Origin: a virus
DNA length: 31,869 nt
IMG/VR virus record: IMGVR_UViG_3300045988_093262
Reading direction: 5' to 3' (one strand)
Below the pieces are notes generated by a model. That model saw nothing but the letters and a program-made list of their open reading frames with translations, did no database searches and was not told the DNA's origin. Of this stretch, positions 4,095 to 14,006 are shown piece by piece (the stretch's first letter is position 1; each line of letters opens with the position of its first letter). Made by a program: the position numbers and the translations under genes.

Positions 4095-4463
4095 CTATGC
4101 GGACTCCAAGCATCCCTTGAGTATGGCGCGGTACTCGTCCGCATGGTCGGCTGCGGCGGGTTTCAGGTACGGGTGCGGGTGCCTGCGGCTCGTCCCAAGC
4201 TCAACATACGGGCCGTATTCAACGTTCGTGCCGATGTAGACCGCGTTCTCCTCCGTGTCGATGGCGTTGGTGATTGAGTTCTTCAGGCGGCCCGTCCTCG
4301 TGGGGCAAATCGCCTTGGCGTTGCCCTCGGCCTGCTGCCCAATCATGACGAGGGCCTTTGCGATTGCCTTGTCCATGGCAGCTTGTATCTGCTCGACGTT
4401 GTTCTCCTGCACCTCTACCAAGGTTGACTTGTCCGAGGAGGTGAGGCCGCTGGTGCTATTCAT
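4095..4463 (-). CDS. HK97 gp10-like family protein
   Basis: The motifs PTRTGRLKNSI and VEYGPYVELGT ... HPYLKPA match the HK97 gp10-like family (PvdTGrLrnSi ... YapyvEfGT). Confidence 0.55.
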   Translation of the reverse strand: MNSTSGLTSSDKSTLVEVQENNVEQIQAAMDKAIAKALVMIGQQAEGNAKAICPTRTGRLKNSITNAIDTEENAVYIGTNVEYGPYVELGTSRRHPHPYLKPAAADHADEYRAILKGCLESA

Positions 4464-4665
4464 CCTGAGACTCCCACCTCGGGCAGGGCATCCCGTCATA
4501 GAGCACCCCGGCGGGCTTCCCGATTCCGTCAGAGCGTCTGTACGCGCCGCAATACGCCTTCTCCACCTCGTCGCCCCAGACGGGTTCCATGCCGGCGTGT
4601 CTGCACGTCTCGCAATACTTGGGGTTGGGCCTCTTGACGCCGAACGTCTGCGAAAGGTCGCTCAC
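4456..4665 (-). CDS. Small Cys-rich hypothetical protein (CxxC ... C ... C)
   Basis: 69-aa ORF directly downstream of the MuF-toxin gene. Contains CETC, YCG and CPRW. Confidence 0.4.
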   Translation of the reverse strand: MSDLSQTFGVKRPNPKYCETCRHAGMEPVWGDEVEKAYCGAYRRSDGIGKPAGVLYDGMPCPRWESQDE

Positions 4666-6617
4666 TTCTTTGCCTCCTGTTGAAAAAGGTCGTAGCCGTC
4701 CTCAGGGTGGAGTTCCATGTCGATGTAATACTTCCCACCCTGGTGCTCAATCTTAGTCACCTTGTAGGAGCCACCCCTCTGGAGGATGACCTCGAACTCG
4801 AGACCGAACCACTCTTGTCCGCTCTTGCCGTCCCACTCCAGTCCGTCGCAACCTCCATATGCGGAAAACGGCTCGGCATAGATGGCGTTGGAGCCTGCCG
4901 GGGCGTAGATGTTGATTATCACGGGCTTTCTGGCGAAGCCGTCTCCCTTCGCTGCGCTCGTGGACCAGAAGCCTCCAACCCTTCCGGAACTTCCGACAAG
5001 CTTTTGCAGCTCGTCGTCCGATAGGCTCGCGAATCCGCCGTCCTCGAGGCCGAAGAACGTGTCCATTGCGTCCGTGCCGGAACCGCGATTGAGCCACATG
5101 TCGTGCTCGTAGCTGCTCTTAGCGATGGCCTCCGTCATCTGTCGGATTTTCATCCCGTAGTGGCGAGAGTCGATGTTCACGTTTCCCGGACCCACGTAGT
5201 TCTCCCGGCCCCACCTGCCGTTCTTGAAGCCGTTCGTGGGCTGGTTCCACTCGTTGGAGTCACTGGTGTAACCGTAGAGGGAACGCTTCTGGTTGGTGGT
5301 CAGAGAGCGCCAAACCTCGCCGGCCTTTGGCCTAAGCTCTGAGTCGGCCTTCTTCTTGTCCTTGAACCACCATGCGGCGTCCTTCCTAGCCTTGGAGAAG
5401 GCGTCTGACGGCTCGGCCCTCGCGATGCCGATCGACTTCCCAAGCTTGTCAAGCTCGGCTTGGAGCCTGTCCACCTCGGAGAGCATGTCTTGGTAGCGCT
5501 TGCCGTACTTCAGGAACCTCTTGGCCTTCGGGCCGTTCGCCTTCTCCGCAAGCTTCTTGTCGTGCTCGAAGCTGTCGAAGGACCACACGAATGGCCAGAA
5601 GTCGTTCTCGTGCGCAGCCTTGAAGTCCATCGCCTTGGACCTGAGCGCGTCAAGCTCGGCGGCCTTCTGGTTGTAGCTGGAAACGGTGGTCTTCCGCTCC
5701 TTGCGCCCCTTCCACTCCTCGAAGCCCTTCCCCTTGAGCGACTTGTCGGCGGCATCGATGAGCGCCTTGGCCTCGGGCATGTCCGCGACCAGCGTGCAGC
5801 GGCAGTTGTAAACCTCCAGCCCCTGTCCGTGGGGGTCTCCCGGAAACGACAGGCCGGGAGCGAACTCGTCATCAATCGGAATCGACACGCCGTTTCTGGC
5901 TGCGTGCTCCGGTCGCGTCTTGGCGTCTCCCGTGGACAGCCACTTCTTCAGGATGACGATTCCAAGCTCCTTGGAGATTTTACGGTAGAAGTCGACCCTC
6001 CCGCCGTTCTCCGCTCCCGTGGTGGCCGTCCTCGCAACCCTGATTGCCGAACCCATGCTCATTCCCGTTGGACCTGCGATACGGTTGGCGATGCCGTCGA
6101 TTGACTCGCCTTGGAGAATCCCCTGAGTGATGGCTGAGCGGACGTGCCGGGAGTTCCAAGCGCTCGACTTGCCCTTCTTGACCTTCGGTGTCGGGTATAG
6201 CTGCGGGTTGTCCCTCATAAGCCGCTCGACGGTCGAGTGGTCGACCAGCTGGAAGCTCGTTCCCAGCCCGGTCCCGCTCTCGACCTCGTAGAGCGCTGCG
6301 TTTGCGTTGAGCGCGTAGACTTCCTCGTTGGACTTTGAGACAATCTTGGCCGCAATCTCCTCGCAAGCCTCCAAGTCGGCCCCGAGGGAGTCGGCCATGT
6401 CAGAAATCCACTGCTGTTTCGCCAGTTGCTCCCTGTTCCACTCCTTGAACTCCTCGGAGCTCAGCGACTTCTTGGCCTTTGCCAGTTCAGACTCGTACTC
6501 CGCTCCGGCCTCCTTGAGCTTGGCTTTCATTTCCGAGTAAGCCTTGGAGTAGGCCGCGTGAATCCTCTTCTCGACGGTTTTCAGCATCTTCTCGGTCTGC
6601 TCGTGCGCCTCGTCCAC
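4662..6617 (-). CDS. MuF/SPP1 gp7-family minor capsid protein fused to a C-terminal C3/VIP2-like mono-ADP-ribosyltransferase toxin domain (MuF polymorphic toxin)
   Basis: The Mu F domain motif is TRPEHAARNG...NCRCT. The C-terminus carries the R-S-E ART signatures: LYGYTSDSNEW (as in YTgSsYqeIN), an Arg, the STS motif FWSTSAA, and the ExE/ARTT motif LEFEVILQRGGSYKV (as in VIP2 EKEVLLDRGSKYKI). GTG start at 6617 with an AAGGGGG ribosome binding site. Confidence 0.85.
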   Translation of the reverse strand: MDEAHEQTEKMLKTVEKRIHAAYSKAYSEMKAKLKEAGAEYESELAKAKKSLSSEEFKEWNREQLAKQQWISDMADSLGADLEACEEIAAKIVSKSNEEVYALNANAALYEVESGTGLGTSFQLVDHSTVERLMRDNPQLYPTPKVKKGKSSAWNSRHVRSAITQGILQGESIDGIANRIAGPTGMSMGSAIRVARTATTGAENGGRVDFYRKISKELGIVILKKWLSTGDAKTRPEHAARNGVSIPIDDEFAPGLSFPGDPHGQGLEVYNCRCTLVADMPEAKALIDAADKSLKGKGFEEWKGRKERKTTVSSYNQKAAELDALRSKAMDFKAAHENDFWPFVWSFDSFEHDKKLAEKANGPKAKRFLKYGKRYQDMLSEVDRLQAELDKLGKSIGIARAEPSDAFSKARKDAAWWFKDKKKADSELRPKAGEVWRSLTTNQKRSLYGYTSDSNEWNQPTNGFKNGRWGRENYVGPGNVNIDSRHYGMKIRQMTEAIAKSSYEHDMWLNRGSGTDAMDTFFGLEDGGFASLSDDELQKLVGSSGRVGGFWSTSAAKGDGFARKPVIINIYAPAGSNAIYAEPFSAYGGCDGLEWDGKSGQEWFGLEFEVILQRGGSYKVTKIEHQGGKYYIDMELHPEDGYDLFQQEAKK

Positions 6618-8083: not shown

Positions 8084-9294
8084 TGGTAGGTCCTCCCGTC
8101 AAGAACGGATTTGTAGGGCTTTTCGCGATTGTAGACCCGCATGGTCTTGACGAAGTACCGCATGGCGTCCATGGCGTGGTCCGCCACCTTCACGGGCCTG
8201 TCCTCCTCGCCTCTGGAGTCCCAGACGTAACCTCCGAACTCCTCGGAGACTTCCTCGAGGTCGTCGGCAACCCTGATGGCCCCCGTCCTCATGGACCCCA
8301 TGGTCATTCGTATGCCGTCAAGAACCGCGTTGTCGGCTGGTGTGACTCTTGCGCCCCTACCCCTCAGCTCGGCGATGAACGAGGCAGCCGAGGGGTCGAC
8401 TATGAACCGCTCGGCCTTTGGCGCAAGCCTCATTACATCGTCGGCGTGCTCGGCGTCCGTGCGGTTCCTGCCCGTGTCTCGTCCCGAGTAGTAGTAGCAC
8501 CCCACGCAATGCCAGACGCCCTCGTGGTCGAGAACCCACCTAAGGGCTGCTGTGGCGTTGAGGGTGCCGTAGTCCACGCTGACCACTTCCCGCTCAGCCG
8601 CTCCGGTGTACCTAGGCTCAAGACACTTCTGCCAGTCCGGGTAGACCAGCCCCTCGGCTTGGGTCCAAAGCCCCTTGATGTATCGGTCGTAGCAGACGGT
8701 CCCGGCGTATTCCTCCTTGAGGGAGGCCACGAAGCCCTTGTCCAAGAAGGGGTTGTCGTCGATGGTGTACCTCTGGCGGTATATGTCGCCGTCCGAGTCG
8801 AGGAACCTCTTGAGCCAGTGTCTTGGGCCTGCCGGGTTGCACGCCGCGTGACACTCCGAGTAGGGGAATGACAGTCGGCTTTTAAGCATGTCGAAGACGT
8901 CCTCGGAGAGCGCGGCCAGCTCGTCGCAGTAGCAGAACTTCACTGCGGCTCCTTGGAGCTTGACCACCTGAGAGCGCTTCTCAGCTCCGAGGCAGTACAC
9001 GCGTTCGCCGAAAAGCTCGACCGTGTTCTCCGAACCCCTGATTTCCCCCACAAGCTCGTCCCCGAAGGTGTCCCTCATGGGTTGGAGCACGTTCCTCTCG
9101 ATGTTGCCCAACGACACGCCCAGAATCAGGTCGATGCCCTGAAGGCCAGAGAGGCCGATTACCCGGTCCGGTATCGTGAAGTTGCACGCAAGCCAAGACT
9201 TTCCGGAGCGCACTGCCCCCTCGCAGACGTTCCAACGGTGGTGGGCCTCCCGGACGTTCTCGGCCTGCTTTTGGCTAAGCTCCATCCTTGGCAC
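8080..9294 (-). CDS. terL: Terminase large subunit
   Basis: 404 aa. Walker A GAVRSGKS near the N-terminus and a nuclease-domain acidic residue pattern. Overlaps TerS by 20 nt. Confidence 0.85.
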   Translation of the reverse strand: MPRMELSQKQAENVREAHHRWNVCEGAVRSGKSWLACNFTIPDRVIGLSGLQGIDLILGVSLGNIERNVLQPMRDTFGDELVGEIRGSENTVELFGERVYCLGAEKRSQVVKLQGAAVKFCYCDELAALSEDVFDMLKSRLSFPYSECHAACNPAGPRHWLKRFLDSDGDIYRQRYTIDDNPFLDKGFVASLKEEYAGTVCYDRYIKGLWTQAEGLVYPDWQKCLEPRYTGAAEREVVSVDYGTLNATAALRWVLDHEGVWHCVGCYYYSGRDTGRNRTDAEHADDVMRLAPKAERFIVDPSAASFIAELRGRGARVTPADNAVLDGIRMTMGSMRTGAIRVADDLEEVSEEFGGYVWDSRGEEDRPVKVADHAMDAMRYFVKTMRVYNREKPYKSVLDGRTYQ

Positions 9295-9670
9295 CCTCAG
9301 CGGCGACTGTTACGGACTTCATAAGCTCCCTGACGGCATCCAGCGTCTTCTCGTCCTTCTCCGGGAGCCTCTGGCACCTTCCGTATTCCTGCGGGTAGGC
9401 CCTCTCCAGATACCATGCGGACGCCTGCCAACTCCCCTCTCTGGCGGCGTTGACGACGTTCTGGAGGTGGTATGCCTTGCGCATGGCCTTTGCCTTGGTG
9501 ACCTCCTCGGCCAGCTTCCTCTTGAGCGGGGTGTCTCCCGCCTTCATCCACCCGTACCAAGACGACCGGTGTATCCCGAGCGCGTCGCAGACGTCGGCGT
9601 CGTTGAGGCCGGTCTGCACCAGCCTCACGGCCTCCCTGATTAGCTCTTCGTCGAGCTTGCTTCTAGCCAA
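9275..9670 (-). CDS. terS: Terminase small subunit (HTH)
   Basis: 131 aa. The HTH GIHRSSWYGWMK is typical of TerS. TTG start with an AGGGAGGG ribosome binding site. Confidence 0.65.
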   Translation of the reverse strand: MARSKLDEELIREAVRLVQTGLNDADVCDALGIHRSSWYGWMKAGDTPLKRKLAEEVTKAKAMRKAYHLQNVVNAAREGSWQASAWYLERAYPQEYGRCQRLPEKDEKTLDAVRELMKSVTVAAEGAKDGA

Positions 9671-9680
9671 AGTCTTCCCT

Positions 9681-9716
9681 CCCTAAAAGAAAGGGAGGCA
9701 CAGCGTGATGCCTCCC
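9681..9716 (-). terminator. Rho-independent terminator between yhhQ and terS
   Basis: Minus strand reads GGGAGGCA-ucacgcug-UGCCUCCC, followed by UUUCUUUU. Confidence 0.6.
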
Positions 9717-9744
9717 AGTAAACGATCTTGATTGATTTTAGCAG

Positions 9745-10392
9745 CTAGGCGAGAGTCTTAGCCCACCCGATGACGCGCTTGGTGATGACGTTGAATATCA
9801 CGACCTCGGCGAGGACCTTGAAGAGGTAGGTCAGCACGATGTTCTCGATGTTGCTCATGAACGAATAGGAAGCTCCGTAGGCGATGGCCGTAAAGACCGC
9901 CGTGTCCACCACGTCGCCGAAGACGGTGGACAGGATGCACCGCTTGAACAGGGAGGTCTCTCCGTCCCTCACCTTAAGCACGGACATCACCTTGTCGTTC
10001 ACCCAAGTCCCGCACATGTAGGCGACCATGGAGGCGAGAACCATTAGGGGGGCCATGCTGAAGATTGTCGCGAACTCCCCCTGAATCTCGAACTGTGGGT
10101 CAGGCGGGAGGGACACGCAGGCGTTCAGGAGGAGGACAGAGCAAACGTTGCAAATCATCGCCCATCGACGCATCTTGAGGGACGTCCTGAACCCGTACAC
10201 CTCAACGCAAAGGTCGGAAATCACGTAGTCTACTACGATGGTTGAGATTCCCAGCGCGAGCGTCATTCCGAAGAAGTCAATGTTCTTGATTGTGCATAGG
10301 TTCGCCGTTATGAGGCCCGCGCTCGATATTGCGAAGAGAATTACCAGAAGCTCGTTTTTGGTTTTCGGCAGCTTGGACTTGATGAAACCCAT
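9745..10392 (-). CDS. yhhQ: YhhQ/Vut-family queuosine-precursor (preQ0/preQ1) transporter
   Basis: 215 aa with multiple transmembrane segments. Motifs TVFGDVVDTAVFTAIAY, ASMVAYMCGTW and LTYLFKVLAEVVIF align with E. coli YhhQ (TLFGNVSDTLAFFFIAF, ASFMAYALGQ, VDYCFKVLISIVFF). Confidence 0.8.
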   Translation of the reverse strand: MGFIKSKLPKTKNELLVILFAISSAGLITANLCTIKNIDFFGMTLALGISTIVVDYVISDLCVEVYGFRTSLKMRRWAMICNVCSVLLLNACVSLPPDPQFEIQGEFATIFSMAPLMVLASMVAYMCGTWVNDKVMSVLKVRDGETSLFKRCILSTVFGDVVDTAVFTAIAYGASYSFMSNIENIVLTYLFKVLAEVVIFNVITKRVIGWAKTLA

Positions 10393-10405
10393 CTGTTTCC
10401 TTCCG

Positions 10406-11200
10406 CTAGTTTTTTAGGGGGGCGGTCTCGAACCCCTCGTTCACGCTCCTCCATTTTACATACAGACGCTTCTGGATGTCCATATACCTCTCGTAGCTGT
10501 CTATGAACTGTTCGACATAATCCTCCTTGCACTTGGGCCTCGGGTACCTCCCGCCGTCCAGCCTCCGTCCGAACGACACGCAATGCCCCCAGCTGGAGGC
10601 GTCCGCATAGTCAAACGGGACCTTCTCGAGCACCTTGGTCCTCGCCATTCCGAGGCAGTGGATTCTCGTCCCATGAGACCGCGCGTACTTCAGGAACATC
10701 GCGTATTGCTCGTCCCTGATGTCCTCGTTGCGGAAACCCGTCACTGCCGCCACGTGGCCCGACATTTCCCGGCACATTGCCTTGAACTCCTCGACTCCTC
10801 GGTTCTTGTGCCAGACGGGGATTATCTTCTCTGGGACGCCGCTCTCGGAGCGGAGAATCTGCCTAAGCCTGAGAACGTTTTCGTAGCCGATTATGTTATC
10901 GACGTCCATTTCGAAGTAGCCGACCACGTTGGGCCTGTCGAACTCCATGATGAACCTTGCATACTCGTGGGTATAGCTCTCCCAGTCCACGTGGACGCCC
11001 TTCTGGAAGCTGTGCGCACCGCTGTCAATCATTATCAGCTCTGAGCTGTCCCTCACCCTCTCGGCGAAGCCCTTGGGCTTCTTCCGCAGGTAGAAGTAGC
11101 TCATGAGGTTCCAAAGCATCTTGATGTTGCGGCGCTCCATTTCGTCGAGCATGCCCTCGGCGTATCCGCTCACCTCGATTGCGCTAAGGAACAGCCTCAT
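10406..11200 (-). CDS. dpdA: TGT-superfamily DpdA-like 7-deazaguanine DNA transglycosylase
   Basis: About 264 aa from ATG 11200, with an ATGA overlap onto the upstream stop codon. It has a TGT-like IMIDSGAHSF (DSG catalytic-Asp motif) and a second acidic motif FDYADAS. It sits next to yhhQ. Confidence 0.55.
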   Translation of the reverse strand: MRLFLSAIEVSGYAEGMLDEMERRNIKMLWNLMSYFYLRKKPKGFAERVRDSSELIMIDSGAHSFQKGVHVDWESYTHEYARFIMEFDRPNVVGYFEMDVDNIIGYENVLRLRQILRSESGVPEKIIPVWHKNRGVEEFKAMCREMSGHVAAVTGFRNEDIRDEQYAMFLKYARSHGTRIHCLGMARTKVLEKVPFDYADASSWGHCVSFGRRLDGGRYPRPKCKEDYVEQFIDSYERYMDIQKRLYVKWRSVNEGFETAPLKN

Positions 11201-11742
11201 TCGCTGACCTTCTTGAAGTGGATTTTGCGGTCCACGCACCCGCACTTCGGACACTTGAGCATTTCGTGCTCAGGCTCGTCGTAGCTCTCTTCCGATAGGT
11301 CGGGGATGGAATCCCAGTCCATTTCCCCGCTCACGTCAAACCCGAAGTCCGTGGCGTCGAACTCGCCGGACAGTGCGTCCAGCTCGTATGTGAGGGCGTC
11401 CATGTCCCAGCCCGTCATCATGGTGGTCTGGTTGTCCGCGAGCGTCAGCATTCTGCGCTGTGCGTCGCTCAGGTCGTCAACGAACACGACCGGTACCGTG
11501 TCCATCCCAAGTTTCTCGGCAGCCGCAGCCCTGCCATGGCCCGCGACAATCTCGGGGATGCCGTCGTCATCGTGCCATGCCAGTATCGGGTTTCGGAATC
11601 CGAACTCCTCGATAGATTTGGCGATGGCCTCGACGTTGCGGTTGTCGTGCTTCTTCGCGTTCCCGTCATATGCCTTGAGGCTCGCAAGAGGAACCTGCTC
11701 GACCTTGACCTCAACCTTTCTGACTGTCAAATCTCTCTCCAA
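11197..11742 (-). CDS. ParB/Srx-like nuclease-domain protein with a C-terminal zinc ribbon; possible DpdB-like partner
   Basis: The ParB N-terminal domain is KAYDGNAKKHDNRNVEAIAKSIEEFGFRNPILAW...IVAGHGRAAAAEKLG. The zinc ribbon is CPKCGC. Translationally coupled to dpdA through an ATGA overlap. Confidence 0.6.
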   Translation of the reverse strand: MERDLTVRKVEVKVEQVPLASLKAYDGNAKKHDNRNVEAIAKSIEEFGFRNPILAWHDDDGIPEIVAGHGRAAAAEKLGMDTVPVVFVDDLSDAQRRMLTLADNQTTMMTGWDMDALTYELDALSGEFDATDFGFDVSGEMDWDSIPDLSEESYDEPEHEMLKCPKCGCVDRKIHFKKVSE

Positions 11743-11756
11743 TCTCCGGTCTTCGG

Positions 11757-12548
11757 CTAGGACTTCTTCAGGATTGAGACAATCGTTCCAATCCTTCTCT
11801 CGGCCTTGTCCAGAACGCGGTCGATTATCTCACGTCCTCGAATCTCTGAAAGCCACTCTTCGTTGACTCCACCGTAGAAGATTGCCGCCAAGGCCCCAGC
11901 CACGCAGGCGTTCGTGTCCGTGTCCCCTCCGAGGTTCACGGCGTTTAGCACGGCGTCATCGAAAGACTCCGAACTCTCGAGTGCCCAGAGCGCGGCGTCC
12001 ACCGTGTCCCAGCAGTAGCCGCCGGCAACCTCGGGGCACTTCGTTGGAAAGTCTGCCATTTCGCCGTATTCCATTCTTTCTGTGAAGTCATACAGGAAGC
12101 CGCAGGCACCCATGCTCTCCGGGCTTCCGTGCGTCGCTCCGAGAGACCTCATAGCCTCGCCCCTATAGACCGGGAGTATCGCCAACGGGACGCAGCGCAT
12201 GACGGCACCGTTTCCGGAGTCCAGACGGTGGCACTGAGGCTTGCCCGTGTCTATGGCCCTAGCGGTTGTCATTCCCACGTCAAATATTCCGTCGACCGTG
12301 TATTCCTCGTCGTGGAGCCAGCGGCGGAAGTAGGACATGACGTCCTCTAGGCTCCCGGTGTCCGCCCAACAATCAAGCTCGGCAAGAATCATTGAGGTAT
12401 CGTCGCTCCAAGTGCCGGCGGGCTTGTTGTGGGAGCCGTAGCCCGTCATCCCGTGGCACTCGAAGCTACCGCGGGGCCTGAACTCATAGGGCACCCCCAT
12501 CGCGTCGCCGATGGCCGCCCCGTAGACGCATTGTCTCAGAAATCCCAT
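11757..12548 (-). CDS. ADP-ribosylglycohydrolase (DraG/ARH family)
   Basis: Motifs GAAIGDAMGVPYEF, AGTWSDDTSM and NLGGDTDTNACVAGALAAI (the GGDTDT signature). A strong AAAGGAGAGG ribosome binding site lies upstream of ATG 12548. The ORF is open in frame up to 12632. Confidence 0.8.
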   Translation of the reverse strand: MGFLRQCVYGAAIGDAMGVPYEFRPRGSFECHGMTGYGSHNKPAGTWSDDTSMILAELDCWADTGSLEDVMSYFRRWLHDEEYTVDGIFDVGMTTARAIDTGKPQCHRLDSGNGAVMRCVPLAILPVYRGEAMRSLGATHGSPESMGACGFLYDFTERMEYGEMADFPTKCPEVAGGYCWDTVDAALWALESSESFDDAVLNAVNLGGDTDTNACVAGALAAIFYGGVNEEWLSEIRGREIIDRVLDKAERRIGTIVSILKKS

Positions 12549-12647
12549 TCCTAGCCCCTCTCCTTTCGCAGTTCGAACTTGATGAAGTCTTGGACGTACT
12601 CCAAAAGCGCCTCCATGCGCTCGGGCAACCACTCGAAGATGTTCTCG

Positions 12648-12890
12648 CTAACCATTCAAAACTTTCTCCGATTTCTCTCGACGGATGGCCACATCGACCA
12701 CTTTCAGCCCTACCAGATAGCACGCTGCGAGCTCCTTGTCCAACGCGCCTCCCAGAGAGCTTGCGAAGCCTGCGGACGACAGGTGCCCGTCCTCGTGCTC
12801 CCTGCTAACCATGTTCCCATCCAAGACGAACGAAACCCTCTCCTCTGTGCCGCTGTCTCCGTCCATGGCCGAAACGTCAATCAGGTACAT
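12648..12890 (-). CDS. Hypothetical protein
   Basis: 80-aa ORF on the coding strand with no overlapping competitor. Confidence 0.35.
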   Translation of the reverse strand: MYLIDVSAMDGDSGTEERVSFVLDGNMVSREHEDGHLSSAGFASSLGGALDKELAACYLVGLKVVDVAIRREKSEKVLNG

Positions 12891-13116
12891 TGCAAAGCCT
12901 CCAGTTCCTAGAGAACGCCTCTACGGTGTCGTATGGGCAGCAGCCACCATTCCAGCACGCAAACAGCCTGCCGTTCCCCATGTAGACGCTCAGGGGCATT
13001 ACCTGACCCCTTCTGAGGCCCATGCTCCCGTCACTCCCGATGAACTCGTAGACGGCCCTGTCGGACTTCCTCTGGGGCCTCGTGAGGAGCATTCTCAGGT
13101 TGAACCAGTAGTCCAT
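12877..13116 (-). CDS. Hypothetical protein with a Cys cluster (CWNGGCCPYD)
   Basis: 79-aa ORF on the coding strand. Confidence 0.35.
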   Translation of the reverse strand: MDYWFNLRMLLTRPQRKSDRAVYEFIGSDGSMGLRRGQVMPLSVYMGNGRLFACWNGGCCPYDTVEAFSRNWRLCNVPD

Positions 13117-13120
13117 TAAT

Positions 13121-13294
13121 CAACCTCCTCGTTCCTCTCGGGGTCGTAGTTGTGGAGCACCATTTCTGGGGACGACTTCACCGCATCCTCGACGTATCTC
13201 TTGGCCTCCTCCCGCTCTCCTCGTGCCAGTCGAAGAACTTGTAGACGTTCTCGTTGGTATACGGGTTAAAGCACTTGACCCTGATGGCTAGCAT
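13121..13294 (-). pseudogene. Small gene interrupted by a -1 frame change, either a sequencing error or a genuine frameshift
   Basis: ATG 13294 has a strong GGAGAGGAGAGG ribosome binding site and gives MLAIRVKCFNPYTNENVYKFFDWHEE, which then hits a stop. The -1 frame continues ...REEAKRYVEDAVKSSPEMVLHNYDPERNEEVD to a TAA at 13121. The switch falls in a gggaggagg run. Confidence 0.4.
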
Positions 13295-13311
13295 TGACCT
13301 CTCCTCTCCTG

Positions 13312-13369
13312 CCGGGGGCCTCTCCCCCTCGTTGGTTAATATCTTACCACAACTATTAAGCGATTACAA
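13312..13369 (-). promoter_or_regulatory. Conserved promoter cassette, copy 1
   Basis: Minus strand has -35 TTGTAA, 17 nt, then the extended -10 TGGTAAGAT. A hairpin GGGGGAGAGGCCCCC and a GGAGAGGAGAGG ribosome binding site follow. Confidence 0.55.
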
Positions 13370-13370
13370 C

Positions 13371-13402
13371 AAAAAAGCCCCCCGATTTTTCGGAGGGCTT
13401 TT
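13371..13402. terminator. Bidirectional rho-independent terminator
   Basis: Hairpin gccccccga-uuuuu-cggagggc with an A6 tract on one side and a T4 tract on the other. It lies downstream of ssb. Confidence 0.6.
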
Positions 13403-13518
13403 CGAGAAAGAAGGGATGCATGCCCGCATCGGCTGGATTGTATCACGAAATGGAAGGAGGCGCCCCGTAGGACGCCCCCAGTCCCGCAATTGCAGAACTC
13501 ACCTCGGTTCCTATTGTA

Positions 13519-13908
13519 CTAGAAGGGGATGTCCTCTTCAAACTCGTCTGAGTCGTCCTTGGCCGGCTTCTGCGGGGCGTTCTGCCTTGAGGCGTCCACG
13601 AACTCGCGGACCAGCAGCTCGACCTTGGAGCGGCGCTCGCCCTCCTTGCTCTCCCAGCTCCTTTGCGTCAGCTCGCCGTTGAGGACGATTCTGTCGCCCT
13701 TCTGCTTGCGGGCCAGAACCTCGGCGGCCTTGCCGAATGCCACGAAGTCGAAGAAGTTGGGGACGTCCTCCCAGTCCCCGCTCTGGCCCTTCCGGCGGGA
13801 GTTGTAGCAGATTGAGCCGTTGCACACCGGGGTGCCCGAGGTGGTGGCGCGAAGCTCGGGGTCCTTGGTGAGGTTGCCGCTGACCGTGTAGGTGTTGATT
13901 GAGAACAT
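13519..13908 (-). CDS. ssb: Single-stranded DNA-binding protein
   Basis: 129 aa with an OB-fold-like N-terminus. The acidic C-terminal tail ...DDSDEFEEDIPF is the SSB-Ct signature. Confidence 0.85.
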   Translation of the reverse strand: MFSINTYTVSGNLTKDPELRATTSGTPVCNGSICYNSRRKGQSGDWEDVPNFFDFVAFGKAAEVLARKQKGDRIVLNGELTQRSWESKEGERRSKVELLVREFVDASRQNAPQKPAKDDSDEFEEDIPF

Positions 13909-13930
13909 TCGCTTTCTCCTGTCTGTCGTA

Positions 13931-14006
13931 TGGTGCGCGGGGCGGGACTCGAACCCGCAGCCTGCTGCTTAGGAGGCAGCCGCTCTGTCCGTTGGGCTAC
14001 CCGCGC
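13931..14006 (-). tRNA. tRNA-Arg (anticodon CCU)
   Basis: 76 nt read on the minus strand. Acceptor stem GCGCGGG/CCCGCGC. Anticodon stem GCTGC/GCAGC with loop CUCCUAA, giving anticodon CCT. T arm GCGGG-TTCGAGT-CCCGC. Discriminator A followed by CCA. Confidence 0.8.

Follow-up and report, generated by a model that had tools for sequence, protein, structure and literature searches.

A phage ADP-ribosylhydrolase gene from an uncultivated lineage: a probable antidote to the predicted arginine ADP-ribosyltransferase fused to a minor head protein of the same phage

Described transferase-hydrolase pairs and the locus in the window

Bxa, a MuF-fused ADP-ribosyltransferase (ART) of the Bacteroides stercoris prophage PhiBxa, acts on arginine. 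It is neutralised by the ADP-ribosylhydrolase (ARH) BAH, which is encoded next to it and works enzymatically, and also by the binder Bsi; the pairing of an ART with an ARH is thus not new (Alexei et al. 2024, PMC11699363). More generally, MuF polymorphic toxins carry a variable toxin domain C-terminal to their MuF domain, are encoded in the packaging module by the portal gene, and are found in temperate phages and prophages (Jamet et al. 2017). [quoted passage not shown] DraT and DraG serve the reversible arginine ADP-ribosylation of dinitrogenase reductase. Alt of phage T4 is a capsid-packaged ART that is presumably injected along with the DNA and modifies host proteins on arginine (also cited in PMC5576092 and PMC9503650). 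Finally, the phage protein AdfN, an orphan NADAR antitoxin against DarTG1, removes ADP-ribose catalytically without binding the transferase (PMC11825919).

The stretch of DNA analysed here, hereafter the window, is the 31,869-nucleotide IMG/VR virus record IMGVR_UViG_3300045988_093262. Its phage lineage is uncultivated; for positions 9000 to 14000, megablast found no match among 50,697 phage records, and scanning species-representative genomes with the ARH protein revealed no locus and no prophage copy. All genes of the window lie on one strand. The longest contig with an identical ARH measures 32,655 bp, so about 0.8 kb of the genome may be missing from the window. Three features carry the comparison with the described systems:

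Positions 11757 to 12548, minus strand: ARH, an ADP-ribosyl(arginine)hydrolase-family gene (PF03747, AlphaFold2, Foldseek, conserved residues, dN/dS); predicted antidote or eraser for the phage ART.
Positions 4662 to 6617, minus strand: MuF (SPP1 gp7-like) minor head protein with a C-terminal ART (MuF-ART), 651 aa; presumed packaged and injected toxin (Pfam, PHROG).
Positions 4662 to 5354, minus strand: ART domain, residues 422 to 651, with an R-S-ExE signature (R511 in WLNRG, S552 in FWSTS, E607-F-E609).

As in Bxa, the presumed toxin of the window is a MuF minor head protein with a C-terminal ART of predicted arginine type. PF04233 matches residues 158 to 276 (3.4e-13) and PF03496 residues 436 to 629 (4.2e-15), and PHROG 16625, "Bxa ADP-ribosyl transferase", matches at 6e-25. 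The gene directly follows the portal gene and its C-terminal domain is swapped in the sister L051 family, which gives it the layout of a MuF polymorphic toxin. An ExE motif is typical of arginine-type ARTs, and QxE of their DNA- or Asn-targeting relatives. The ExE-type toxin domain that a sequence-only reading of the window had predicted was recovered with all of its elements, i.e., R511, S552-T-S, and E607-x-E609, as well as with the match to PHROG 16625. A3, an alignment of five ART sequences that replaced the eight-sequence alignment A2, which was too divergent for pattern scanning, shows no variation at the R, the S, or either of the two E residues. The matches of the ART domain among PDB sequences were few and weak, namely C3-like toxins and Lmo0066 (8za7_B, E=0.0026).

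Bacteroides phage Versailles has the same locus type as Bxa. Its ART domain is 37% identical to that of the window, and its ARH, which falls in a different subclade, is 26% identical to the window ARH; the catalytic Glu is shared, as Versailles E15 aligns with window E22. Like BAH, the window ARH is separately encoded and compact (~260 aa) and lacks a toxin-binding extension, and both loci come from a gut-phage setting. However, BAH adjoins bxa, whereas 5.1 kb lie between the window ARH and the toxin gene downstream of it, and the ARH shares a different unit with DNA-modification genes. The host of PhiBxa belongs to the Bacteroidota, whereas that of the window phage is probably Collinsella or another of the Coriobacteriia, and PhiBxa is a prophage, whereas the scan of the window's ORFs brought up no recognisable integrase or repressor module. 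[quoted passage not shown] The window ARH is predicted to reverse arginine modification as Tri1 does, yet Tre1 is delivered by the T6SS and the window toxin presumably by the phage capsid, and the two window genes are not adjacent, unlike those of Tre1 and Tri1. Both chains of the Lmo0066/Lmo0067 pair match their counterparts in the window, although that pair is encoded on a bacterial chromosome and is not a phage head fusion, and Lmo0067 is larger (332 aa). A literature search returned no paper on Lmo0067 and found lmo0066 only in genome surveys, the likeness being one of sequence and structure. With DraT/DraG the window shares the ARH fold, the binuclear-metal residues, and the logic of writer and eraser; however, its writer is a C2/C3/VIP2-type ART (PF03496) and not a DraT, it has no nitrogenase or PII context, and its setting is one of conflict or effector delivery as opposed to metabolic regulation. 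Alt resembles the window MuF-ART in its head packaging, presumed for the latter, but is not a MuF fusion; to our knowledge, T4 encodes no ARH-family eraser. AdfN is likewise a phage-encoded remover of ADP-ribose, but its NADAR fold is unrelated to that of ARHs, its substrate is ADP-ribosylated DNA guanine, and it has no cognate phage ART.

The ARH gene and its predicted product

The ARH ORF on the minus strand extends from an ATG at 12548 to a stop codon at 11757 to 11759 and encodes 263 aa. It is preceded by a ribosome-binding site:

Positions 12560 to 12565, minus strand: AAGGAG ribosome-binding site, 11 nt 5' of the ARH ATG (read from the sequence).

This site and the N termini of the homologues, which begin at the same MGFLRQ as the window protein, support ATG 12548 as the start codon; the shared MGFLRQ start also makes an upstream GTG at 12632 unlikely. 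Comparison with three relatives gave dN/dS values of 0.14 to 0.23. The gene is real, intact, and under purifying selection, and a chance match is excluded.

The motifs GDAMG, TWSDDT, and GGDTDTNA, by which the gene had been assigned to the ADP-ribosylglycohydrolases, are located at residues 14 to 18, 46 to 51, and 207 to 214, respectively, and the profile search supported this assignment with an E value of 9e-42 for PF03747 (144 bits against a cut-off of 26.2). PHROG 6572, "ADP-ribosylglycohydrolase", matches at 8e-42, and 1011 homologues were obtained with E values of at most 1e-10. The dimetal-binding residues withstood closer alignment: E22, S48-D49-D50, and D209-x-D211-T212 are all present and near-invariant in homologues, and D90, N113, R118, and T139-H140 are also present in the window ARH. 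Specifically, T46, D49, D50, N113, R118, T139, H140, D209, D211, and T212 are kept in 122 of 123 aligned homologues, and in the same 122 sequences position 48 is S or T. The lone exception at T46 is a single divergent sequence that also has A at D90, and one further sequence has gaps at D15 and E22. The metal and catalytic residues align with those of Lmo0067, Tri1, and TTHA, and we take them to correspond to the DraG residues under DraG numbering.

The AlphaFold2 model of the ARH reached a mean pLDDT of 90.2 and a pTM of 0.91 and features 13 helices; according to this model, the protein has the all-α fold of ARHs. Foldseek returned a probability of 1.00 for Tri1, Lmo0067, TTHA, DraG, and MJ1187, with TMq values of 0.75 to 0.84. 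The best structural match was Tri1 (6dre; 1.9e-15, TMq 0.83) and the third-best was Lmo0067 (8za7_A; 3.9e-14), whereas the DraG structures matched at 2e-11 to 6e-10 with a TMq of approximately 0.8. Among PDB sequences, Lmo0067 ranked first (5.7e-32) and Tri1 second (8.7e-28), and ARH3 (serine type) and ARH1 gave much weaker matches. The resemblance to the Tre1/Tri1 pair that had been suggested from the sequence is therefore borne out by both kinds of search, which have Tri1 and Lmo0067 as top neighbours. Judged by its sequence, the protein is a compact relative of the immunity-type ARHs.

More specific labels fitted less well. The designation "DraG-like" from the sequence-only reading holds for the fold and the metal residues, but is imprecise, as the DraG equivalog model TIGR02662 gave 74.1 bits against a cut-off of 337; this score, the PF03496-type writer in place of a DraT, and the phage context led us to reject a label as DraG orthologue. 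The Tri1 model NF041672 was the best NCBIfam match, and a label as Tri1 orthologue was rejected as well, given a score of 107.6 bits against an equivalog cut-off of 490 and the missing N-terminal extension that is said to occlude the toxin. Specificity for arginine is suggested by the nearest relatives (Tri1, DraG, and BAH-type enzymes) and by the ExE motif of the linked ART.

The ARH unit and its linkage to ART genes

The ARH had been placed in an operon with DNA-modification genes, and this arrangement was confirmed in that the gene is tightly packed with three others between two hairpins:

Positions 13456 to 13479, minus strand: terminator-like hairpin after the SSB gene, upstream boundary of the ARH unit; 10-bp stem with 8 GC pairs, then a T-rich tail.
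Positions 11197 to 11742, minus strand: ParB_N-domain protein, immediately downstream of the ARH (PF02195, 4e-8; PHROG 620, 3.5e-43; PADLOC MTase_II N-terminal region, 7e-29).
Positions 10406 to 11254, minus strand: DpdA-like protein of the tRNA-guanine-transglycosylase family, candidate for DNA 7-deazaguanine modification (PHROG 887 "queuine tRNA-ribosyltransferase", 4.8e-33).
Positions 9745 to 10392, minus strand: Vut_1/queuosine-precursor transporter (PF02592, 1.2e-30; TIGR00697, 2.5e-27).
Positions 9693 to 9716, minus strand: terminator-like hairpin between the transporter and small-terminase genes, downstream boundary of the ARH unit; 9-bp stem, then TTTCTTTT.

Between the ARH, ParB_N, DpdA-like, and Vut_1 genes there are a gap of 14 nt, an overlap, and a gap of 13 nt, in this order; the DpdA-like protein gave no match to Pfam or NCBIfam. 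The upstream hairpin has a dG of -27.9 kcal/mol (z=-4.5; none of 200 shuffles folded as well) and is conserved in L002 and L004. For the downstream hairpin (dG -17.1 kcal/mol, z=-2.1), the stem is kept and the loop is changed in L001 and L002. Overall, promoter and terminator counts in the window showed no excess over shuffled expectation, and only these two intergenic hairpins, both checked by folding and conservation, were retained. Judging from gene order and the two hairpins, the ARH belongs to a unit that lies upstream of the late head genes. In the window, 5,140 bp and six genes separate the ARH from the downstream MuF-ART gene, cassette adjacency is absent, and a terminator-like hairpin lies between the two units; the ARH and MuF-ART genes are probably in different transcription units.

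In viral contigs chosen only for an ART domain, an ARH was found within 10 kb of the ART in 8 of 10 informative ART clusters, whereas neither gene was present in any of 40 informative terminase-matched control loci (Fisher p=8e-8), these lineage counts being crude since clusters are not phylogenetically independent and detection relied on home-built HMMs. The ARH lies 200 to 455 nt downstream of the head-protein-ART gene in L014, L017, L083/L066 (where the ART carrier is minor-capsid-protein-2), L092, and L147, and approximately 1.1 kb downstream in L124. In the window lineage, the L051 family, L036, L060, L116, and L128, it precedes the terminase gene and lies 3.4 to 8.6 kb upstream of the ART. 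The pairing thus comes in two layouts, with an ARH cassette right after the toxin gene or with the ARH several kilobases upstream, before the terminase gene. Within the stretch examined, no ARH was detected near the ART in L152/L155, L103, the L051-family members L097 and L110, and Microbacterium phage IAmGroot. For detection, viral contigs were scanned with an alignment, a single-protein scan of them having found one locus, and stop-to-stop six-frame HMM searches and GC3 were used, as longest-ORF calls masked ARHs in high-GC loci by opposite-strand ORFs.

The linkage of a separately encoded ART and ARH, first noticed in the window alone, recurs in many phage lineages. With it, the toxin-antidote logic of MuF-ART and ARH would reach beyond Bacteroidota prophages, to a phage lineage that probably infects Collinsella and to many uncultivated gut phages. 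For annotation, phage genes labelled "ADP-ribosylglycohydrolase" are best read together with the C terminus of the minor head protein.

Proposed role of the ARH and alternative readings

We consider it probable that the ARH is active and belongs, as a compact binuclear-metal ADP-ribosylhydrolase, to the arginine-type branch of Tri1, Lmo0067, and DraG, and that its main role is that of an antidote to the phage's own MuF-fused arginine ART. The MuF-ART would be made late, built into the head by the portal, and injected with the DNA, and would then ADP-ribosylate arginines of host proteins. The ARH and its ParB, DpdA-like, and transporter neighbours would be transcribed as a separate unit located ahead of the packaging and head genes, so that the ARH would accumulate before new toxin does. 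By hydrolysing the N-glycosidic bond between arginine and ADP-ribose, it would erase the marks of the incoming toxin and keep new, unpackaged toxin from poisoning the cell in which virions are being built. Since the ARH lacks the N-terminal plug of Tri1, neutralisation would be purely catalytic, as it is for BAH. The products of the phage ART would accordingly form the substrate of the ARH, the ART would be packaged and the ARH excluded from virions, and the timing of expression would follow the order of the units. The window ARH reveals no new mechanism.

A possible reading, which we hold only tentatively, regards the ARH as the erasing half of a timed write/erase cycle and at the same time as orphan immunity against the ARTs of sibling phages. 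At the onset of infection, the injected MuF-ART would mark arginines of the host, and the ARH from the pre-late unit would strip these marks, allowing late expression and assembly to proceed; as erasure is catalytic and independent of which enzyme wrote the mark, the ARH might also act as orphan immunity at the level of the population. Such a combination would explain both the position of the ARH outside the swappable toxin cassette and its survival of ART loss.

It is rather unlikely that the ARH mainly removes ADP-ribose written by ARTs other than the phage's own, with AdfN as the model. The writers in question would be either the injected ARTs of competing or superinfecting MuF-ART phages or ART-based host systems (defence or toxin-antitoxin), and the co-resident ART would be incidental or one of several sources of substrate. 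Such an orphan eraser fits those relatives in which the ARH occurs without an ART. In the L051-family members L073, L074, L080, L076, and L087, the ART domain has been replaced or deleted, the MuF portions being 93 to 95% identical up to the swap point, and these phages keep intact ARHs with conserved catalytic residues, which intermingle with the ARHs of ART-bearing siblings; in L073, the last 243 aa of the ART-less MuF matched neither Pfam nor PHROG and are not assignable to a divergent-ART class. The ART-less phage lineages L012, L035, and L040 carry the ARH at the same pre-terminase position, by ParB-DUF4417 and terminase genes. Stand-alone ARHs on host chromosomes, 45 to 48% identical to the window ARH, adjoin type I-E cas genes, the gene of a Macro-domain protein, toxin-antitoxin genes, and restriction genes, in line with Iyer et al., who proposed that host ARG systems act against viral ARTs (PMC9503650), and a precedent exists in counter-defence by an orphan ADPr-hydrolase (PMC11825919). 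The location of the ARH outside the toxin cassette points in the same direction, as does its divergence, which is the fastest among the genes compared between close relatives. On the other hand, ARHs are strongly enriched near head-packaged ARTs, with direct adjacency in at least five lineages, and in the window's own lineage both genes are present at each of the five loci whose flanking sequence is long enough. The analysis identified no host ART defence system, and in PADLOC none of the ARH, MuF-ART, DpdA-like protein, and 69-aa ORF (described below) matched a defence system. Moreover, catalytic erasure is blind to the writer, and the orphan and antidote roles are therefore not mutually exclusive. 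The persistence of the ARH without an ART in some relatives thus weakens an exclusive partnership of the two, and an additional role as an orphan eraser is possible. The ARHs kept in ART-swapped siblings constitute a natural experiment that sets self-immunity against orphan immunity in phage-phage competition.

It appears very unlikely that the enzyme hydrolyses O-acetyl-ADP-ribose, an ADPr-derived immune signal, or some other soluble ADPr derivative instead of protein-linked ADP-ribose. Some ARH-family members, i.e., ARH3 and bacterial homologues, do act on O-acetyl-ADP-ribose (PMC9503650), and stand-alone ARH homologues without an ART exist. However, the nearest neighbours of the window ARH in sequence and structure are protein-Arg-ADPr hydrolases and immunity proteins, not ARH3, its linkage is with ARTs and not with sirtuins or TIR/Thoeris genes, and phage ARGs prefer macromolecular conjugates according to Iyer et al. 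(PMC9503650).

A function alongside ParB, the DpdA-like protein, and the transporter, e.g., as an N-glycosidase in 7-deazaguanine supply or in de-ADP-ribosylating DNA bases, would suit the close spacing between the ARH, DpdA-like, and Vut_1 genes in the hairpin-bracketed unit, but was rejected as highly improbable because neither DpdA nor Vut co-varies with the ARH (among 90 ARH-bearing loci, homologues of both occur only in the closest relatives L001 to L003, and L004 keeps the ARH with a different TGT-like gene and no transporter), a literature search gave no paper linking DpdA with an ARH, and the window ART has the arginine-type ExE motif and not QxE.

The locus resembles that of Bxa in one further respect, a small ORF behind the toxin gene:

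Positions 4456 to 4665, minus strand: 69-aa ORF overlapping the MuF-ART stop codon; candidate for a small immunity protein without enzymatic activity, resembling Bsi solely in its position.

The window ORF has no detectable similarity to anything in Pfam, PHROG, or PADLOC. Its homologues, always located directly after the ART gene, are 94 to 97% identical in L001 to L003 and 38 to 40% identical in the L051 family. In L076, the homologue is fused to the ART-deleted MuF, which argues against a strict tie of this ORF to the ART.

Integrity and affiliation of the ARH

The ADP-ribosylglycohydrolase (ARH) gene of the window and the motif ahead of its start codon are located as follows:

12560-12565, minus strand, AAGGAG sequence preceding the ATG
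11757-12548, minus strand, ARH gene (ATG start, 263 aa)

The sequence-only reading had described an ARH with three signature motifs, which was confirmed by the motifs themselves, profile matching, conservation, dN/dS, and AlphaFold2. Specifically, GDAMG occupies residues 14 to 18, TWSDDT residues 46 to 51, and GGDTDTNA residues 207 to 214; the profile search proposed in that reading, against Pfam PF03747, returned a match (E = 9e-42), PHROG 6572 was matched at 8e-42, and 1011 database proteins matched the ARH at E ≤ 1e-10. In an alignment of 123 ARH homologues drawn from the fetched loci, 122 keep T46, D49, D50, N113, R118, T139, H140, D209, D211, and T212 and carry either S or T at residue 48. 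The single divergent homologue deviates at T46 and D90, and one other sequence has gaps at D15/E22. Values of dN/dS between 0.14 and 0.23 against three relatives indicate purifying selection, and the AlphaFold2 model, built from a 22-sequence alignment, reached a pLDDT of 90.2 and a pTM of 0.91. Amino acid identity to the ARHs of the nearest relatives L001, L002, and L003 is 81 to 83% (neighbours, 78 to 100%), making the ARH the most diverged of the 15 protein segments compared, save the MuF-ART linker in L002 and L003. The window clade carries a C-terminal extension of approximately 20 residues (LDKAERRIG..., residues 239 to 262, window 11757-11831), which is predicted to lie within a long, confident helix and is missing in host and phage homologues at 44 to 48% identity.

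The best solved relatives by sequence are Lmo0067 (8za7_A, 5.7e-32) and Tri1 (6dre, 8.7e-28), followed by Thermus TTHA (2cwc) and DraG (2woe), while ARH3 is matched at only 1e-5, across the C-terminal motif. Structural comparison of the model gave the ranking Tri1 (1.9e-15, TMq 0.83), 8za7_A (3.9e-14), TTHA, and DraG, with weaker matches to ARH3 (about 1e-7) and ARH1 (about 3e-4). The PDB titles of 6dre and 8za7 read "ADP-ribosyltransferase toxin/immunity pair" and "ART-ARH type toxin effector-immunity protein pair", respectively. Orthology to Tri1 (108 bits against an equivalog cut-off of 490) and to DraG (74 against 337) was rejected, and Tri1 possesses an N-terminal extension of about 70 residues that the window ARH does not share. 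Scores so far below both cut-offs argue for a compact protein that is related to the arginine-type and immunity-type ARHs but orthologous to neither Tri1 nor DraG.

The head-protein-fused ART and its linkage to ARH genes

The presumed partner is a minor head protein fused to a C-terminal ADP-ribosyltransferase (ART):

4662-6617, minus strand, MuF-ART gene (651 aa), directly downstream of the portal gene

The protein combines a Phage_Mu_F domain (residues 158 to 276) with an ADPrib_exo_Tox domain (residues 436 to 629), and its signature, R511 (WLNRG), S552-T-S (FWSTS), and E607-F-E609, is invariant in relatives. In ExE-type ARTs of this class, the residue modified is generally arginine. MuF-ART matches PHROG 16625, "Bxa ADP-ribosyl transferase", at 6e-25, and Lmo0066 is among its few PDB sequence matches; the 8za7 pair thus joins a toxin chain, Lmo0066, that matches the window ART to an immunity chain that is the best match of the window ARH. 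A conserved 69-aa ORF with no detectable family (window 4456-4665) follows the MuF-ART gene; its homologue in L076 (18209-19738) is fused in frame to an ART-deleted MuF, which makes a dedicated role in ART inhibition doubtful.

MuF polymorphic toxins were defined by Jamet et al. (2017), in whose text the terms "glycohydrolase" and "DraG" occur nowhere. Bxa, the MuF-ART of a B. stercoris prophage, is toxic to bacteria and promiscuously ADP-ribosylates arginine, a target demonstrated directly; it is neutralised by the adjoining ARH, BAH, whose action is purely enzymatic (activity is lost in E15A, and BAH does not co-purify with the toxin), and also by the small protein Bsi, which binds the active site (Alexei et al. 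2024, PMC11699363). The hypothesis of the sequence-only reading, that the ARH is a candidate reversal partner of a packaged arginine ART, therefore essentially extends this published model to a new phage. Iyer et al. (2022, PMC9503650) remarked on the rarity of ARG domains among phages and described an ART-ARG pair from Aeromonas phages.

Among cultured phages, the sole strong match to the window ART domain is Bacteroides phage Versailles (ON453897.1), whose Bxa-like MuF-ART (L250:6057-8666, 869 aa) is labelled only "hypothetical protein". Right after it, convergent and between small ORFs, lies an annotated ADP-ribosylglycohydrolase (L250:9023-9796) with 26% identity to the window ARH, its E15 aligning with window E22. 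The annotated fusion of MuF and ART in Microbacterium phage IAmGroot (L251:3608-6207) has only a 125-aa hypothetical protein after it, and inspection of the initial 11.8 kb of this genome found no ARH; the ART lineage presumably relies on another kind of immunity, or none.

Linkage was examined from both directions. An alignment-based IMG/VR scan yielded 80 ARH loci with ±10 kb flanks, in which ARTs were sought with home-built HMMs and tblastn; many contain a head-protein-ART fusion. The L014 and L017 lineages show the order TerL-portal-MuF-ART-(small ORF)-ARH-scaffold-capsid, with 265 to 455 nt from the toxin gene to the ARH start, and in L083/L066 the ART is borne by another head protein, Phage_min_cap2, with the ARH within 201 nt after it. 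ARHs located ahead of the terminase gene, 3.4 to 8.6 kb upstream, occur in the window lineage, the L051 family, L036, and L060. In the unbiased direction, starting from ART clusters at 75% identity with informative flanks, 8 of 10 clusters had an ARH, adding the lineages L092, L116/L118, L128, and L124/L147; none was found near the ART in the L152/L155 cluster or L103. As a control, 79 genome loci were picked on a related terminase alone: neither an ARH nor this ART type occurred in any of the 40 with adequate flanks, and the only occurrences, of one gene or the other, were in two Collinsella contigs, each ending on the relevant side (ART-selected versus control, crude lineage-level Fisher test, p = 8e-8). 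This lineage linkage, the Tri1 and Lmo0067 neighbours, and the Bxa/BAH precedent support the ARH as reversal partner, and it probably serves as a self-antidote, or eraser, of the phage's own ART.

ARHs without an ART

In relatives belonging to the L051 family, the sister group of the window clade in a neighbour-joining ARH tree, the N-terminal part of MuF is 93 to 95% identical up to a breakpoint. Past it, a domain of about 243 aa takes the place of the ART in L073 (18784-19515), L074, and L080, and in L076 (18209-19738) and L087 (18764-19927) the ART is deleted. The replacement has no Pfam or PHROG match and is possibly a new toxin domain. The exchange is classic polymorphic-toxin swapping with the distant ARH gene kept: the ARHs of these relatives are intact and interleave with those of ART-bearing siblings at 82 to 97% identity. 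Across the tree, ART-linked clades are dispersed among ART-less ones. The high-GC phage lineages L012, L035, and L040 carry the ARH just ahead of the terminase gene, beside a ParB-like gene (fused to DUF4417 in L012 and L040, the two run against Pfam), and a head-ART was absent from the 10 kb inspected. Homologues on host chromosomes are solitary genes (apparent host contigs L043-L050, e.g., L048:12526-14701; L010:7836-8981; L005:8888-9937), near type I-E cas genes (Cas6e, Cse1), a Macro-domain protein with toxin-antitoxin and restriction genes, or a YhcG/DUF1016 nuclease-like gene; they could be erasers of phage-injected ARTs, as host ARG systems against viral ARTs have been proposed (Iyer et al. 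2022, PMC9503650).

Retention in ART-swapped siblings, ART-less phages, and host chromosomes indicates that an ARH is valuable even without a cis-encoded ART. This fits an orphan eraser, with a precedent in phage AdfN (PMC11825919), a role we consider unlikely to be the primary one here; self-antidote and orphan functions are compatible, because catalytic erasure is independent of the enzyme that wrote the mark. A part in small-molecule ADPr metabolism is very improbable.

Genomic setting of the ARH unit

The window represents approximately an entire phage genome of about 32 kb (GC 60.6%), with every gene on the minus strand and, read along that strand, the order tail and lysis, early/replication block (RusA, DnaD-like, DnaC-like, dUTPase, Rad52-like, SSB), ARH region, TerS, TerL, portal, MuF-ART, scaffold, and capsid. 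No near relative was found among 50,697 deposited phage genomes. The nearest terminases in genomes come from uncultured Collinsella MAGs (56 to 57%) and an Eggerthellaceae MAG (55%), and Collinsella and Enorma chromosomes encode ARH homologues at 44 to 48% identity; together these make Coriobacteriia of the gut the likely host. MuF toxins have been reported only from temperate phages and prophages (Jamet et al. 2017); neither an integrase nor an evident lysogeny module could be recognised in window 1-31869, and species-representative genomes yielded no prophage copy.

Whereas BAH is encoded adjacent to its toxin, the window ARH stands outside the toxin cassette, with 5,140 bp between it and the start of the downstream MuF-ART gene; the case is probably one of MuF-ART with enzymatic ARH immunity, an already known kind, in a split gene layout. 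Two terminator-like hairpins flank a unit of about 3.7 kb comprising small ORFs, ARH, ParB, DpdA-like, and transporter genes:

13479-13456, minus strand, GC-rich hairpin and T tract after the SSB gene (dG = -27.9 kcal/mol, z = -4.5)
9716-9693, minus strand, GC-rich hairpin and T tract between the transporter and TerS genes (dG = -17.1 kcal/mol, z = -2.1)

Their stems are conserved, with changed loops, in L001, L002, and L004, which suggests that the ARH would be made from a unit preceding the late head genes, antidote before toxin. What is suggested here beyond published work is limited to the ARHs kept in ART-swapped siblings and a possible timed write/erase cycle.

Downstream of the ARH follow ParB_N (14-nt gap), a DpdA-like transglycosylase (overlapping; PHROG 887, 5e-33), and the queuosine-precursor transporter Vut_1 (13-nt gap). 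The location in one operon with DNA-modification genes thus holds as close packing with DpdA-like and Vut_1, but a functional tie is disfavoured: these two genes form a variable cassette (window 9745-11254), missing in every other ARH lineage, with shorter gene calls in L002/L003 (L002:11350-12356) and a different TGT-like protein (PF20691) without a transporter in L004 (11408-12172). This argues against a link between ARH and DNA modification, and a role as accessory to the latter is very unlikely. In the window ORFs scanned, no genes for preQ0 biosynthesis were noticed, suggesting that the phage may rely on an imported or host-made 7-deazaguanine precursor. The ParB_N protein (window 11197-11742) matches the N-terminal region of "DNA methyltransferase" models from phage and defence collections (PHROG 498; PADLOC MTase_II), but a methyltransferase domain is lacking; in L012 and L040, the corresponding place beside the ARH is taken by ParB-DUF4417 proteins.
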